DNA of 64,000 nucleotides from Yuukianura sp. NJ FZ-2021 (GCA_046563655.1 CM102285.1:11160001-11224000), one strand, 5' to 3'. Counted from the stretch's first letter, positions 1 through 47,665 are shown. The notes: generated by a model from the sequence alone, not told the origin. Numbers and translations: made by a program.

Positions 1-186
1 AAATAAAAACCAGTTTTATAAGGCATCGCACCGAGCAAAGCAACCATTGCAATCCGTAGTAGATACTGTAGCATATAAAACAACAACGCGCTTGGACTTG
101 ACTTGAGATTACTGCTTACTACCGGGTTGGTATAATTAATACCCGACTAAGATTCGAAAATGTTCTTATTTCAATTAAAAACTCAC

Positions 187-1110
187 CTAGCTGGTTTGTG
201 GTATTCGCACAAATAGTCGAACCTTGAATCCGGCACGGCTACCCTACGTAAAATACAATTGTTTCATTAAAATAGATAATTCGTAACAAGAATTGAGCAT
301 GTTCTAGGATATCACCATTATCCTACTACAAAGAAGCAAGCAAATGCAAGGAAACAGTGTTTGGCAAGTTAAAAACGTGGAACATTTGTTAGGTATGTAA
401 ACACATCAATACCGCGGGGTGTTAAGTAGTAAAATGCAAGCACTTTTGAAATTGAATAAATTGATAATTGAATAAAAGACTTATTTTCATTCGGATCGAT
501 GGTACAGAAGGGGAAGTTTTCAGCCGGAATTGCACTTTTCGTCAAAACGTTGAAGAACGTAGATTTACCCACATTTGGTAGACCAACTGAAATCAAATTA
601 AAAGATGATGACATTAGAATACGGCAGTTTGACAGCATTGTAGTTGATTCTACGGTTTATACTACTGCATACTGTCTGACTTCAAATAACTATACATCGC
701 AGGCAGGTTCCGTTTCCATTTAACGGTGATTCTTTAACGATCCACTATATCTTCGACGAAGACGAAAGAATAATAATTGTATACTTACCTTACTAAAAAT
801 TAACTCTATGTCTAACATTGCTTGACGTAATCTCTAAAGTTTTAAAAGCAATAGGATGTACGGCACTTCCACGAGTATCGATTTCTTTCCGAGCCGATTA
901 CTGTAGAATCGCCAACGTGAAAGGGATCATGACTATTGACACCAAGTGACACCAATGTCCCATCGCTTGATTGATTAATTCACGCTTACAAGAGTAACGA
1001 ACGATGTAATAACGATTTACTAACAACTTACCAACTCCAATTTTGAGATTAGTTCCTATCCTTCCAATCAATGGTTTGGGTTCGACGACTTCCGGCTTCT
1101 TTGGAGGCAT
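187..1110 (-). CDS. OLA1: Obg-like ATPase 1 (YchF/OLA1 family), 5' part only. Exons 1110-1032, 586-485 (or 586-481) and 247-187 (or 243-187); the gene continues beyond the left edge.
   Basis: Spliced translation [81 protein letters not shown]. It contains the P-loop GLPNVGKS and the switch I region FPFCTIDPN typical of OLA1/YchF. Donors are GTAAGT at 1031 and GTGAGT at 186; acceptor TTTCAG at 587. Confidence 0.96.
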
Positions 1111-4100
1111 GACTGATGTGTCACCGTCTTCCAGGTCACTACACTGGACTAACGACTGAAGTGTCAAATGTCAACTGTCAAAATCAATTAACTTTAACTG
1201 GTTAATTACAATTAACTAGGCTCGAACACCTGTTTTTATGAAATAAGCACCGGATAGTTTAAATGCAGCGGGAAAAAAAAGACTGGATTTTCAAATCACA
1301 TGATAGTCCGACTGAAGGCTCCACACAACCCCGCATCACCACTTCACTTGGTATGGGCAGCGCATCACTAATTTAACAAATTAAAATTATTTGCAATTAA
1401 ATAAAAATCTTCGAAAATTAATTATAATTAATTTAATTCATTTATGTTTTAATTAATCTGTAAATTAATAGCTTCAGAATTATGATTTTAGTATTATATT
1501 AACTAGGGATACCAGATTTCAGTCTTCTTTGTACCCCTCTTAAACCTATTCTTCCAAGAAAACCAATAGTTTTAAATACATTAATTATATTTATATTTAT
1601 TTTAAAAGTCATTTTAATTAATGGTAGTTAAAATTATAATTTTTAATTACAATTGATAAAATTATGTATTTTACTTCATCGGTAACACTAAAATCCGAGT
1701 TTTTAAATATTGAGTAGCTTCAACATCGCTCATCTCCAGAGATGGCACACGTTTAGCTCAAAGCTCAGCGTTCTTTTGAATGGATTTGGGATTTTACAGA
1801 ACTGCCTGTTAGAAATATGAAGTAGAATTCAACAATTAGAATTAGAATCAACAATTTTAATTCTTGGAATGGTGTAGAGTTAACTATCATTTGTTAGCTA
1901 CGAGTAATTAATTTGTTAGAATTAATTAATTATTTTAATTCCCCCACAACAATTTAAGTATAACTGTATTTGCCGATATAAGACGTGTTTTGATTTGGTT
2001 GAAACTGCAAACGGCGTTAAAGTTAAGTTAGGTAAGCCTTACAATTAATAACGGTAAAACTGAAATTTTGTTTCGCCTAATCAGTTTTTTAAGACTTTTC
2101 AAGACAAAATTGATGAATTCATCATGAATAGCCCAATTGCCAGAGAGAGAGATACAATTGGAAGGTTCCGTTACTAAAGTTCAGATTCAATTGTAAAGAC
2201 TTTCACTCAAGTGGTTCCATTGAGAAGTGTGGCTGTAGTTTTGAGGAGTAATTTGGTATATGATGATGGATCTTCGTACTTTTGTGGGATGATTAGCACT
2301 GCTTCAGTGGATTTAATTGTGGTGTTTGTGGTAAAGAATGGAGGCTGCCGGTCGTTCCGACGAAGAAACGGTGACAGGCGACCACAGTCAAAAAGATTGA
2401 AGAGAAACCGGGCATGCCTGCCTGCCGACACGGCGTTATGACTCTGCGGCTTTCCCTTGCGCTTCACTCAAAAAACACAACAAAAATCTATACGAAAATG
2501 CAAAAATTCTTCAAACTTGATGTTAAATTGCTCATGAAATTTTTCCTTAACCACATGAACAATGGGATCTGGACGCTGCTCGGCTACTGTTAAGTTCTTC
2601 CGTCATGCGAACTTTCATTCATCTTGTGGTTTCAGCCGCAAAAATCAAATGAGTAAGAAAATTGAATGGAAAGTAGACACAAAATTGGTTAGTTTCTCAA
2701 TTCAAAAACCAAATTATGAAAGAAAAAAAAAGAACCGGGGAAAAAATTCGTCTTTTCAACCAAAAATGTTCTTTCTCCCAAAAATTCGTTGTTGCCTCGA
2801 GTCCATTGGAACAAAACCGTATTCTAAAAAATTGGCTCTTTTGATAGTTACTTTGAATGCATCTGTCCCATTGTTTTGATCCACATTTTCTTTTCAGATT
2901 GAGCTAAAAGGGGCTGAAACTGTATGGAGAGAGGGAGGCTAATGCATTTTGGTGAGTAGGTAATCATGGCGTGTGAATCCAAGTTTGTTCATTGTACTTG
3001 CTCAATTGTTGTAGTACCTGCGACGCTGCAGTAGACGCTGAGCGCTGCTAAGGCTCCAAAAGTAGACTTTAGGCAGCACTGTAAACGAAAAAACGATAAA
3101 AAATTCTAAAAGTCATTGAATAATGGGGGGCGTTTCCCTTTAAAAGTTGAGGGAGCCTTTTCAAAGGGAAGGGGAAGAGGAGATGGGTTTGAATTCAACA
3201 TAAATAAATATGATCATAAAATATGGAAAAACATCAACTCCCTCCTAAAACACATTACTTTACTTTTACTTTACTTTATGAACATTAGAGTAGAGAGGAA
3301 CATTTAGAAGTCAAGTCATTTTCCAAAACCATAACCAAATCATGCAATCCACAGCTCAATTTTTTGTTTCGTTTTTTTCTCTCTAGATTATAATCGTTTT
3401 CTTAAAATAAAAACTGAAAAAGAAAAACAAAACCGAATGAGCTCATGTTTTCACAAAGTGCATTTCAAAAAAAAAAAGTGAAAGCGAAAGAGAAAGTGGA
3501 ACTTTCAAAATTTGTACAAACCGTACGTATATGTTTCAGAAAATTGCAGTCGGCGTTTTTGTTTGACAAGTATTGTTAGATTGTCCGATTGTTTTGTTGG
3601 CTTGTTCCGCTTAGCTTGTGTCGCGCCGCCGTGATCAGGGTGACCGTGCCGTAAATCCAAGTGTTCCTGAAGGCCGTTTGGCTGATGCCTTCGTAGTTGA
3701 CAGAAAATGAAGGGCCCAGGGTGTCACAGGTCCCCTCCCTGGAGGAGTTGTAAGGCGGGGAGTCATTGGGTAACAAAATTGAGTAGCTCACCTAACCTAA
3801 CACAGCCTGAAAACCAAACAAGAAAGAGAAGGAAACCGGAAGTGAGGACCCGGGTAATAACCGAATCCGAATTGTATTCATCTCCTACGAAGAATACAGG
3901 CGGCTTGCTTGCTTTCATTTCTTGTGACCTATTGTCACACTACCGTCGTTTTCTTCTTGTCGGCTTGTTTTTTCCTTCAAGGCGGCCGGCTGCTTCTGTT
4001 ATTGATTTTTTTGAAAAGTAACAATTTTGAAAAAAAATTAACAATCACAACAATACGTTTTTACCATCACAGTTGAATGACATACCAGCCCTTGTGGTCT

Positions 4101-19314: not shown

Positions 19315-22300
19315 TCAAATGGTGGGTTTGATGTCTTGAGCCATGTGACCGTGACTGTGTGGATGGTGGCTGTGGAGATGGTGGTGGGGCAAGTGGTGGT
19401 GGGTCGGAAGTGGAGGTGTTGTGACGGACGAGGCGGGGCTGTTTCCCGAGTTTCCTTCGGAGGGACTGTTGTCATCGTCGTCGTCGTCTTCGGAACAGCT
19501 CCGTTTACTGCCCTCGTTTCCTGATCCGCTTCCGTTTGCACTGTGGGTTTTCACATGCTTGCTGAGGTGATCTGATCTCATAAATCTTTTAGAACACACA
19601 GGGCAACTAAAACGTTTTTCGCCAGTGTGGGTGCGGAGGTGGCGCTGAAGCTCATCTGACCTGGTAAATCGCTTCCCGCAGAAGAGCCAGTTGCATACGA
19701 ACGGGCGCTAAAGGCAAAATATTTCAAAATTTAGAGTTTTAGCCAAAACCAAAAGCTTCGGGAAGGAAACAATTCCATTTCATCAAAGAAAAAAACATTT
19801 TCAGTTTTTTGTTTTCATCGCCGTTCACAAAATTGAAGTATTTATTTCAGGTAGTATTTCAAAAATTTGAAGTTGAAGTTTGTGACACTGTCGCAGAAAC
19901 ACAACTATTTTTGAAATCCTATTTTTAAAAATTTAGAAAATGCTGTGTACTTACTTCGCCTGTGTGCCACCTGAGATGAGCCTTGAGATGCGACGTCTTT
20001 CCATAAACCTGTTACAGACAAAAAACAAACAAAAACCAAAAGTCAATTTCATTTTAAAATTGAGTCGATTTAGAATTTTTTCAATTTCCTTTTACGCGTC
20101 TTGCTTTGGAAATCAACTGCGGTAAAACTCGTTCTTTAATTTTTTCAAAAGTGATTTTATTTCCCATTTACCAGAAGACTAACAAACTTATTTAAGAAGT
20201 CTTGGCATGAAATATTGCATGAGACATTCAATTCCACACGATCTGTGTGGTCAATTTCACTTGCAAAAGGAAATGGTCTCTCTGACACATCATCTCCGTT
20301 AAGGATCTTTTAGTTCTCTCAACTGCTTCACACAGCTCTTCCTTAGCTACTTTTAAATTCAAAATTTCAATTCACAAGAAGTTGAAAATTGAAAAATTAA
20401 AACCAGTTTCGAGTCTAAGTCGCAGAGCAGAATTCAAAATGCGTTTTCGGTTTAAAGATTCCTTCAACTCCGAAATCCACTTTACATTTTAACAGAAATA
20501 AAAATATGAATATAGGAAAACAATTCTACAACAGTTCGTAATCTTCATGTCAACTTATTGCATTCGGAAGAAATTCGTAATGTAATCGACGAAATATTTT
20601 AAATGGTTTGTTGACATGACGGAATTGGAAAGGTCAAAGGTCAACTGTACGTGGTACTTCCAAGTTGGAAGTAATCCCACAAAATTTTGATTCAAAATTT
20701 TCTCGTACTCATAAAATTCATCAAAATTTCGAGTACTAGTAAATGATGCTTACCTTTCCACACCCGGGGATATGACAAGAGTGAATATTTTTCTTTCTGA
20801 GATGTGCCCCTGCCGGACCGAGTCTCTCAGCCTCTTGACAGTTTGGACAATCACAGGTTGCTCGACCAGTGTATCTCCGCTGGGATCGAGGTGAAGGCAC
20901 CTGCTAAAAACAGTTAAAAAACAAAAAGAAATTATACAATTTTTGTACTTAACATTTTTTTTCAAAATTACGAAACATTCCTCAGAAAGTAATTTCCGAG
21001 TCCTGAGGTAAGCGAGAGGGACTCACACTCTCCTATTCATTGTCAAGTCACGAGTTGGTGGCAATGATCAAATTGGAAATTACGTTGAGGAATCTGCAAC
21101 TTTTGTGTTTTAAAGTGACTAACCTGTTGTAGAGAGGTTTGGCCCAACCCAAATCCCACATTGGAGCCTACAGTTTGTGTTGGTAGCATTGACTTGTAGG
21201 TGTCCTAGAATTACGCAGAAATTTTATTACCAAATCTTAATTTCCAATTAAAGTTAATAGTATTTTTTAAGAGCGTGGATGATTTTTAGTCGCTTTGGGA
21301 AGTTAGAGATGAAATCGGAAGTTGTCATCCTTCCATCAGAGGTTGGCGGAGAGGAAGATTTTACCTGAAGAAGATGTTGACCTGAGGTCAAGATATGCGG
21401 ATTAGAGGCGGCTAGTGTATGTGTTAGGGTCGAGTAGTCATTGTAGTTGGACATCTGATGATGTGGGTGATGAGCATGATGCATTCCAGTGACGGCGGCT
21501 GAACTGATTCCACTGTCCAGCCAACCAGCTCCGGTGGCTACACCGTGCACTGCGTCCCACCATGAGGTACCGTTCATTCCTGACATCTATTCCACAAAAT
21601 CACAATTTCAACTTTGACCTCAAAATCCTTACGTATTGTGGTTTTACACGAAGGAAAGTTAAAAGGAAAGCATTTACGTAAGGAATTTTCGAAAACGGAA
21701 AAATTGCGGATCTTTGAACAGTGAAAGTTAAAAGCGTTCCCTTTCTCTGATTTTTTTAAAAACAAATTTTCGAAAAAAACGAATCGAAAAGTATGTCAGG
21801 TTGGGCCATTTTTTTTAGAAAAATGTCGTGGAATATTTGCTTACGTCTGCCTTAATCCCTGAGTGAGCTCCAGACATTGCATTGAAGGCCCATTGGTCAT
21901 AGGCTACACGAGAGTACACAGCGCCCACTCCAGCGTCCATCTTGGTAATGTACCCAGGCGGAGACTGGTCACCGCACGACGCCGGATTGGCTGACCTGAA
22001 ACACAACCGTTAGCCCGGGAATTTTAAAACAATGTTCTTCAAGTTCAACACGAAGGGAGACCAATTACCCATGAAAATAGAGTTCCGCAGCATACCCTGG
22101 ATTTCCACATGAGGTCGTGACCGGAGTCCGACCATATCCAGAACTTTGGTTGCTCGAAGAGACAGAGGAGGCTAGGCTTCGTTGAGCAGCGCTCAGGAGA
22201 GACACTCCTGTATGCGCCAATGAATTTCCAAGCGAAACAGCGCTACTTGAAGAAGAGCTCGTTCCGCTCGTAGGAACATTTGACCCGAGATGACCTCCGC

Positions 22301-45817: not shown

Positions 45818-47665
45818 CTAGTAGAAAGTGGGGTAAGGGTACTGGTAGTGGTGATGTTCTTGTTGTTGAAATGAAGGGAAATGATGATTTGAAGTCATTG
45901 ATGACATCAAGTTGAAGTTGGTTGAAGTGTTACCGAAAGCAGTGTTAGAAGTGGCAGAAAAATTTGAACTTGGTGTCCCTTCGTTTCCACCTTGTTGATG
46001 AAGTGTACTGTAAAAATTTGGAAAATGGGCCGAAGATGAGCTACTGCTGCCAAAAGTGACATTAGCAGGAGGGCCCTTGACAGGTGACCCAACTTCGGAC
46101 GAGTCGTCCGAGTCCGAAGAAGCAGAAGACTGGGACGAAGGGGACAGGGGACTTGACATGATTGAAGACGACGGAGGTGACAGAGAACGACCTGTAGTTG
46201 ACGTGACTTCGTCCAGAGTCAATTCAGATTTTGGAAGGGTCCTGTCACTCAAGGGCTCCTTTGAATTATTCGTCTGCTTCTTCACTCCATTGTTTCCATT
46301 GTGCGTTTTGATGTGTTTTGAGAGATGGTCAGATCGCATGAATCGTTTAGTGCATACTGGACAGACAAACCGTTTTTCTCCAGTATGAGTTCGGATGTGA
46401 CGCTGCAGTTCGTCGGAACGTGTAAACTTTTTTAAACAGTACAACCAGCGACACAAAAATGGCTTTTCTCCGGTATGTCCTCGGATATGGGCTTTCAAAT
46501 GTGATGTTTTCCCATAAATCTAAACAAAAAAATATTGATTGTAAATTCTTAATTAAAGTAATTGTAGCTTTAATTTTCAAAAGGAAAGTTATAATTACCT
46601 TTCCACAACCAATGATGTGACATATATGCTGTCTTTTCTTTTTCTTTTCACCTTCCACTGCAAGAAACAAAACAAAATTTTTGAGTATAAGCACAAGACG
46701 ATTGTAACTTGTATAATTGCTTCAATTTTCGACAAAAAAGCCTACAATTGTACATTTACATTTATGTGCCTTTCTCCAAATTATGATTTGCAGTTTTGGA
46801 ATCATGGGCGTAGTGAATGCAAAAGGAAAAAAAATCCGCAACTGTCATAACTTAAATTTCTTTCCCATTTTTTGTGATGTTAATTCTTTTACAATTCTTT
46901 GGAGTTTCAGCAGTAATTACACAATTTCAACACAACATGTAATTATTTTTGTCATTTTTGTCAAAAGCACATAAGGTAAGGTGAACAAAAAAAGTTCGTT
47001 TCTTCAATAAGAAAGAATTAAAATTTAAACACCAGAAGTGGGTGGTTGAACAAAAGTAATTGCAGAAAATAACTTTGGTTTGTAAAATTATTATTTTCAA
47101 AAAATAATTTTTACCGTTAAGTGGTTGAATTCCTGAAAGACAATTTGGACATCGACATCTTCTGGATTTGCGTTGAATGGAAAGTGGAGATGCTGAGTGA
47201 AACTGTAGTGGATTCGGTGGAGAAAAGTAAGTTGATTGGGCTGATGATGACGATGGCGTCATTTGGACTGATGGTGGAGACAAGGACGGTGGGGGAGAAG
47301 GCCACCACTGGAAATGGTCTTTTTGTGACCCACCAGCCCCACCGCCAGCACATCCAGACCCCACTTGATTGTGAAAGTTCGTCATGTTGTAAAGTGAGGT
47401 GTGATATGGAGTCATCGTTGGTGAATGATAAGTTGGAAACTATAGAAAAAAAATGAAAAATTGTTACAAAATTGGCAAATATAGTGAAAGTTAAAATTTT
47501 AAATTGAGGTGACAGTGTCAAAGACATTGGTTTCAACGTAATTTTTGAAATTTTTTTTTCTCAGAAATAAGATGCAAATTACAAAATTTACAAAATTTTG
47601 CTTACCTGATGAGAAGACATGGAGCTGTACTGATGATGAAATCCATTCATGAATAGGCCATCCAT
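45818..47665 (-). CDS. Sp5/btd: Sp5/buttonhead-class zinc-finger transcription factor, 381 aa. Exons 47665-47606, 47439-47115, 46657-46599, 46519-45818.
   Basis: Btd box [10 protein letters not shown] of the Sp5/btd type. Three fingers: [73 protein letters not shown]. Long Ser-rich C-terminal tail. GT-AG introns with consistent phases (60+325+59+702 = 1146 nt). The Sp-family call is firm; the subfamily call is by motif. Confidence 0.88.

Follow-up and report, generated by a model that had tools for sequence, protein, structure and literature searches.

Which splice sites remove the second intron of OLA1 (Obg-like ATPase 1) in Yuukianura sp. NJ FZ-2021? The beginning of this gene lies in a stretch of DNA of 64,000 nucleotides, called the window below, and its second intron can be read with two complete pairs of splice sites that overlap and are offset by four nucleotides. 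One pair has AT-AC termini and the other has canonical GT-AG termini. The features on which the question turns are the following, with coordinates counted from the first letter of the window.

Within 1-1300, minus strand: 5' end of OLA1 (Obg-like ATPase 1) with exons 1-3; the rest of the gene, where the C-terminal YchF domain (PF06071) of the family would be encoded, lies beyond the window start.
1032..1110, minus strand: OLA1 coding exon 1, with ATG at 1110-1108, 26 residues and the first base of a Val codon, followed by GTAAGT at 1031-1026.
587..1031, minus strand: OLA1 intron 1, canonical GT-AG (GTAAGT...TTTCAG); the join of G and TT gives Val.
485..586, minus strand: OLA1 exon 2, with the P-loop GLPNVGKS; 34 residues and an A, translated in frame from 587.
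248..484, minus strand: OLA1 intron 2, 237 nt, with AT-AC termini, phase 1 in a Ser codon.
479..484, minus strand: 5' splice site of intron 2, ATAAGT, equal to the U1 consensus GTAAGT at +2 to +6.
266..270, minus strand: candidate U2-type branch site of intron 2, TTAAT, from a scan for the yTrAy motif; the predicted branch A267 is 19 nt upstream of C248.
248..249, minus strand: 3' terminal AC of intron 2, read from the sequence; orthologues agree.
187..247, minus strand: OLA1 exon 3, beginning GT AGG GTA...; (S), 19 residues and AG, followed by GTGAGT at 186-181.
479..480, minus strand: decoy GT in the context TAA/GTCTTT, equal to +5/+6 of the AT-AC donor.
244..245, minus strand: decoy AG, formed by bases one and two of exon 3's arginine codon, AGG.

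The gene was called OLA1 in the initial annotation, and both Pfam and homologues confirm this identity. Exon 2 matches the Pfam families MMR_HSR1 (E=5.8e-10) and FeoB_N (E=1.8e-6) and carries the OLA1/YchF motifs GxPNVGKS and FPFCTI(D/E)PN in its P-loop G domain. Its identity to matches named obg-like ATPase 1 is 92-97% over the exon, and its peptide is identical at 34/34 residues to those of two metagenome loci (L013 and L028) and of several proteins from transcript-like contigs (P0058, P0065, P0074, and P0076). The N-terminus encoded by exon 1 is like that of L013 and P0058. A search with exon 1 and its read-through (window 991-1110) returned 28 candidates, none of them significant, and did not find a protein of the same species. 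A pseudogene or a sequencing error is ruled out, since the three exons are open and conserved and the donors of introns 1 and 3 (GTAAGT and GTGAGT) are good.

Elsewhere in the window, two open frames on the minus strand (19315-19707 and 45818-46519) contain Sp/KLF-like C2H2 zinc-finger triplets, with Pfam matches to zf-C2H2 (E = 3e-11 and 9e-12) and zf-H2C2_2 (E = 6e-17). In Drosophila, Sp1 and buttonhead are located close to CG1354, the homologue of OLA1, on the X chromosome. By this comparison, the Sp/KLF-like frames in the OLA1 window may represent conserved synteny with that Drosophila region.

Read on the minus strand, the donor end of intron 2 is ...AAT GAA A(485) / AT(484-483) AA / GT(480-479) CTTT and the acceptor end is ...TTTT AC(249-248) / GT(247-246) AG(245-244) / G(243) GTA GCC. 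A listing was made of all GT-AG, GC-AG, and AT-AC pairs that have their donor between 520 and 440 and their acceptor between 300 and 200 and keep exon 3 in frame with no stop. Two pairs of 237 nt each stand out in it, AT484-AC248, which yields ...DPNESRVAVPD, and GT480-AG244, which yields ...DPNENKVAVPD. Among canonical pairs the listing contains just one more, GC441-AG244, by which 13 residues are inserted. Sequence and listing thus bear out what had been noted at the outset, that two complete in-frame pairs of equal length lie 4 nt apart and that the AT-AC pair (484-248) restores the conserved ESRV, here as ESRVAVPD.

Taken by itself, the second pair calls for no special explanation. A donor that reads ATAAGT automatically has GT at +5/+6, an arginine codon of the form AGR places AG at exon positions 3-4, and an AGR codon is found in 6/16 of the orthologous AT-AC loci described below. 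The context of GT480, TAA/GTCTTT, agrees poorly with the donor consensus. The opposite coincidence, in which a real GT-AG intron has an accidental AT...AC at -4 that restores Ser-Arg, has a chance of (1/16)(1/16)(1/8), or ~5e-4, by our own estimate with uniform base composition. A real GT-AG intron with a chance AT-AC at -4 is therefore unlikely.

Orthologous introns were collected with a degenerate pattern made of the 10-residue end of exon 2 followed by A-R-TAAGT. It matched 43 metagenome loci, and had 0 matches in prokaryote genomes and 0 in viral contigs. Because the pattern fixed the donor side only, the 3' ends of these introns are independent observations, while the six donor bases are set by the pattern and hence give no independent evidence of the donor in the metagenome loci. 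Exon 3 (V-[AP]-VPD...) was located downstream in 26/43 loci; in the other 17 it was not found in 86 to 6006 nt of downstream DNA, and these loci are uninformative on the 3' end. All four loci with a GTAAGT donor and an exon 3 have a 3' terminus of AG at the phase-1 position (4/4). The 22 loci with an ATAAGT donor and an exon 3 end in AC in 16 cases and in AA in four, with no recognisable terminus in two. At a chance rate of 1/16, the binomial probability of at least 16 AC termini in 22 AT-donor loci is 3e-15. The first and last intron bases covary, G with G and A with C (16 AT-AC and 4 GT-AG loci), the exceptions being the four AT-AA loci. In every AT-AC and GT-AG locus the A at the end of exon 2 and the GT or GC at the start of exon 3, followed by the arginine codon, read Ser-Arg. 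That codon is CGN in 10/16 AT-AC loci. These lack an AG at +4 and hence a GT-AG alternative, and only AT-AC keeps the frame in them. The remaining 6/16 have AGG, as does the window, and the second pair is present in them.

The introns are mutually unalignable (<70% identity), apart from one multi-copy family (L005, L009, L016, L026, and L038) and one identical pair (L028/L035). After related copies are collapsed, ~14 distinct AT-AC introns remain, in addition to that of the window. By their exon peptides, some loci agree with Hymenoptera-, Lepidoptera-, and Coleoptera-like proteins in 34/34 and 17-18/18 residues, others have their best match in the sponge Geodia barretti (P0106), and still others are Daphnia-like. 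Judged by these loci, the AT-AC intron is conserved from sponge-like to arthropod-like sequences. A multi-copy OLA1 family with its best match in Geodia barretti comprises L005, L009, L016, L021, L026, L038, L039, and L041, and shows signs of decay, namely an altered P-loop exon in L009, L016, L021, and L041 and a stop in exon 3 of L039. The two loci with odd termini (L009 and L016) are identical and come from this sponge-like family with decayed members.

The two sequences closest to the window make the same comparison at short range. The exon 1 peptide of L013 equals that of the window at 24/26 residues. When the window, L013, and L028 are aligned, the exons have many synonymous differences and the introns are unalignable, while AATGAAAATAAGT and TTACGTAGGGT are invariant. 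The donor ATAAGT is the same in all three and the bases that follow it diverge at once, so that the region of the decoy GT reads GTCTTT in the window, GTTTCT in L013, and GTGCTA in L028. Positions +3 to +6 of the would-be GT donor (CTTT, TTCT, and GCTA, respectively) are neither conserved nor consensus-like, and therefore no donor is maintained in the +4 register. The AGG codon is kept in all three and the dual pair is in this sense locally conserved, although three sequences with AGG are too few to tell selection from shared ancestry.

The termini raise the further question of which spliceosome would recognise this intron. AT-AC termini are mostly of the U12-type according to the account of Frey and Pucker (2020; PMC7072748), and this speaks for a U12-type (minor spliceosome) intron here, as do three insect-like loci (L002, L006, and L014) whose positions +5 to +10 read GTATCC. 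Against it, the donor is ATAAGT and not ATATCC, and the window itself reads GTCTTT, not GTATCC, at +5. U12-type introns are marked by a donor that starts ATATCC or GTATCC at +1 and by the branch sequence TCCTTAAC, placed 10-26 nt before the intron's 3' end. A simple motif search of 27 introns, from the 26 loci and the window, found such a donor in 0/27 and a word resembling TCCTTAAC within the final 45 nt likewise in 0/27. A U12-type intron is thus extremely unlikely. Read against the consensus, by the criterion of Sheth et al. (2006), the window donor ATAAGT matches GTAAGT at +2 to +6. In insect-like loci the match to U1 extends to ATAAGTAT, with A at +7 in 28/40 and T at +8 in 27/40, counts in which related loci are not independent of one another. 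We conclude that intron 2 is very probably a U2-type (type II) AT-AC intron spliced with the pair AT484...AC248. The initial annotation had likewise proposed a U2-type AT-AC intron, on the ground that the donor is U1-like, not U12-like, and has no U12 branch motif with it. Those observations hold, with U12 motifs in 0/27 introns by the motif search, the ATAAGT...AC arrangement turns out to be kept in relatives when the intron ends of orthologous loci are compared (AC in 16/22 ATAAGT-donor loci), and the U2-type reading emerges as the best one from the donor, the absent U12 motifs, and the conservation in orthologues.

Two further features of these introns may be recorded. Most insect-like loci retain ATAAGTATC at donor positions +5 to +10, with C at +9 in 31/40, and the three loci with GTATCC, the U12-type donor core, at these positions (L002, L006, and L014) are without a U12 branch motif. 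A YAG ending 3-4 nt upstream of the terminal AC is present in 6/17 AT-AC introns (L006, L014, L024, L027, L034, and L042), an AG lies within the first 6 exon bases in 9/17, and neither is present in 5/17. In these sequences an AG close by may assist in recognising the 3' site, though it is not required.

What do OLA1 proteins read at this position? A first search used a 47-aa query made of exon 2 and its read-through, and its 120 matches are biased towards ENK words by the read-through. Among them, 52/120 come from genomic contigs and are short products of read-through that go on as ...DPNENKY, which corresponds to GAA A/ATAAGTAy. Named records of this kind come from Coleoptera, Diptera, Hymenoptera, and Lepidoptera. 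A second search, with a full-length hoverfly OLA1 as the query, returned 120 full-length proteins. A full-length protein on a contig of <4 kb is here termed transcript-like; this is our own criterion, applied to lengths copied by hand from the tables. The second search contains ESRV in 83 of 120 proteins (35 of 44 transcript-like and 48 of 76 others), ENKV in 19 (0 of 44 and 19 of 76), ENRV in 14 (6 of 44 and 8 of 76), and EARV in 3 (3 of 44 and 0 of 76), the remaining one being a mispredicted model outside the transcript-like group. The 20 transcript-like proteins of the first search divide into 12 with ESRV, 7 with EARV, and 1 with ENRV. ENKV therefore occurs in 0/64 proteins from transcript-like contigs (44 + 20), and Arg precedes Val in 64/64. 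The transcript-like proteins nearest to the window (P0058 and others) read ESRV.

All 19 ENKV proteins of the second search come from genome annotations (19/76 vs 0/44; Fisher p = 1.2e-4). These insect proteins are P0114, P0120, P0127, P0130-P0132, P0134, P0135, P0154, P0188, P0191, P0193, P0198, P0205, P0212, P0213, P0219, P0225, and P0230, and the annotations of Orchesella (P0019) and Geodia (P0106) have ENKV as well. In Musca domestica, P0137 (ESRV) and P0134 (ENKV) differ at residues 61 and 62 only. Annotated isoform pairs whose sole differences are S61N and R62K are found in Bactrocera neohumeralis, Condylostylus longicornis, and Cylas formicarius; a similar arrangement had been expected to be on record in other arthropods, and the annotations of these three insects contain it. 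In Hermetia illucens, a read-through product (P0023, ...DPNENKYPNF) and an annotated protein (P0144, ...DPNESRVPVPD) have their first 60 residues in common, and because they diverge after residue 60, the donor of the annotated mRNA is neither GT nor GC. The only other forms with Lys are Daphnia models (P0037, P0051, and P0102), which read ESKV or ENNKV. A Drosophila immigrans model (P0178) is without SRVPVPD; it carries ENNEAVFNL... and 25 additional residues, as though prediction had met no canonical intron there.

Taken as sequences, the ENKV models appear to be either a systematic error of annotation or an isoform that does not exist, produced by the choice of the GT-AG pair at +4. The ENKV and ESRV products are two bases apart, and an aligner that prefers GT-AG could misplace ESRV reads with two mismatches. 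The annotated ENKV isoforms may also rest on real junction reads, in which case there would be some use of GT-AG in those species.

These observations bear directly on the two alternatives in which the GT-AG pair is functional. If GT480-AG244 were the sole real intron, the protein would be ENKV and the AT-AC pair a coincidence. The termini of such an intron are canonical, ENKV is present in 19/120 full-length OLA1 proteins, and the Orchesella (P0019) and Geodia (P0106) annotations agree with it. Yet every ENKV protein is from genome annotation, the GT donor is poor, AC is present in 16/22 AT-donor loci, most of them without AG at +4, and an accidental AT...AC that restores Ser-Arg is as rare as estimated above (~5e-4), so that we regard this alternative as very unlikely. 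The other alternative is that both pairs are used in this organism and yield ESRV and ENKV proteins of equal length as a real, possibly regulated, isoform pair. Both pairs are indeed complete and in frame, the S61N/R62K pairs of B. neohumeralis, C. longicornis, and C. formicarius have the form that it predicts, AGG is retained in the window and its two closest relatives, and Asn is natural at the first position, as shown by ENRV in 7/64 transcript-like contigs. The second position tells against it, since 0/64 transcript-like contigs have ENKV or any Lys there. Moreover, the GT donor context TAA/GTCTTT is poor and not conserved in L013 or L028, and the annotated ENKV isoforms may be aligner artefacts, their products being only two bases apart. 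Because AG at +4 is absent in 10/16 orthologous AT-AC introns, a dual-use switch is not ancestral. Use of both pairs in this organism is in our view unlikely. A conserved form of the two-residue isoform switch suggested by the initial annotation finds no support in the 10/16 introns that have no AG at +4, in the 0/64 count of ENKV, or in the unconserved +3 to +6 positions of the GT donor.

On the U2-type AT-AC reading, splicing could proceed along the following route. U1, and later U6, would pair with the donor in the register A/AUAAGU, and cleavage would occur before A484. Aebi and colleagues reportedly found in 1987 that the position of cleavage is determined by the 5' splice region as a whole, and not by GU itself. 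The branch would form at the predicted yTrAy word TTAAT (270-266), at A267, 19 nt from C248. In the second step, the A at +1 would be compatible with the terminal C248, in place of the usual combination of G with G. Exon 3 would then begin at G247 and the protein would read ...DPNESRVAVPD. The AG four bases further downstream would need a G at +1 in order to be used. According to works cited in Sheth et al. (2006; PMC1557818), the combination of A with G blocks the second step, and a change of G to A at +1 is rescued by a change of G to C at the last intron base. Judged by the ends of the orthologous introns, the G/G and A/C covariation at the OLA1 site is this rescue rule seen in nature. Use of GT480 would require U1 and U6 in a shifted register, in which GU and one further base alone fit the consensus, and mixed pairings would shift the frame by 4 nt. 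Because its GT lies within the ATAAGT donor word and its AG is the start of the AGG codon, the pair GT480...AG244 is probably a by-product with little or no use in splicing. A gene predictor that accepts only GT-AG would pick GT480...AG244 and report an ENKV protein.

AC is not universal among AT donors, since AT-AA termini are found in four loci (L004, L015, L022, and L026). Three of these (L004, L015, and L022) are cladoceran-like, apparently intact over all exons, and have AGG, so the GT-AG pair at +4 exists in them. The fourth (L026) is a sponge-like copy with a CGC codon and no alternative pair. Intron sliding in progress was the other option of the initial annotation. It is possible, though we hold it doubtful, that an AT-AC intron overlapping a GT-AG pair at +4 marks an intermediate stage in a genuine slide of the intron by 4 nt. 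Where the codon is AGG, loss of the terminal C would pass splicing to the GT-AG pair at +4, and ATAA would turn into coding sequence for Asn-Lys. Such a slide fits the intact-looking genes with AT-AA termini and AGG (L004, L015, and L022), as far as their sequences go, and also the Daphnia annotations with Lys at the arginine position (ESKV and ENNKV). Two Anopheles models (P0052 and P0107) whose read-through is ESRY would fit as well, with a GT intron at +4 in phase 2 of the arginine codon. Alternatively, and this would be equally unrecorded, the AT-AA loci may splice AT-AA with the major spliceosome. Genomic products that read ENRVPVPD...KPAR with no intron at the OLA1 site are also found (P0046, P0056, and P0087). 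Judging by these Anopheles models and genomic products, a slide or a loss of the intron at this site seems to have taken place in some Diptera-like lineages.

The U2-type AT-AC reading matters for several reasons. U2-type AT-AC introns are very rare, and OLA1 would provide an example that lies in a housekeeping gene and that very distant animals have in common. With GT-AG, AT-AC, and AT-AA states at one site, it offers a ready comparative series on the pairing of the first and last intron bases and on whether introns can slide. The reading would also explain a silent change of SR to NK, beside switch I, in no fewer than 19 public OLA1 models of insects, and it illustrates how an aligner that favours canonical sites could create spurious "isoforms" when the decoy preserves the frame. 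Public annotations already hold ESRV models that imply the AT-AC intron. Among the papers searched, none was found that links OLA1 or CG1354 with AT-AC introns, or OLA1/GTPBP9 with minor introns or U12. The U2-type AT-AC kind is already known, and the OLA1 intron may yet stand in the supplementary intron tables of Sheth et al. (2006) or of the minor-intron surveys.

Wu and Krainer are said to have described U2-type AT-AC introns of SCN4A, SCN5A, and TAF2 in 1997. In their survey, Sheth et al. (2006; PMC1557818) count 15 U2-type AT-AC introns among ~186,000 human introns and 3 among ~40,800 fly introns, with 6 for mouse. They define the class by a donor that is U2-type apart from +1, as it is in OLA1. 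With the SCN4A, SCN5A, and TAF2 introns that these authors list, the OLA1 intron has in common its AT and AC termini, a donor whose remainder is the U1 consensus, the lack of a U12 donor or branch motif, and conservation in orthologues across distant animals, and it is consistent with a terminal C rescuing an A at +1. It differs from them in its gene and in an orthologous site that exists in three states (GT-AG, AT-AC, and AT-AA), and about one third of its members also have, 4 nt further downstream, a GT-AG pair that keeps the frame. For OLA1, use of the major spliceosome is a prediction. With U12-type AT-AC introns the OLA1 intron has AT-AC termini, rarity, and deep conservation in common, but it is without the ATATCC donor and the TCCTTAAC branch site and should be a substrate of the major spliceosome.

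Stoltzfus and colleagues reportedly studied intron sliding in 1997. The two frame-preserving boundary pairs of OLA1, 4 nt apart at both ends, have the form of a possible slide intermediate, whereas the window itself contains no demonstrated slide and the sole hints of one are the AT-AA loci and the annotated proteins with Lys. Sliding is "at most very rare" according to literature cited in PMC10639083. Finally, annotation is biased against non-canonical introns, as the account of U12DB describes (PMC1635337), in that a nearby GT-AG pair replaces the true intron, and the ENKV models of OLA1 resemble this. OLA1 differs from the usual case in that the replacement keeps both frame and length, and for that reason the error in the model is only two residues and passes ordinary quality checks.
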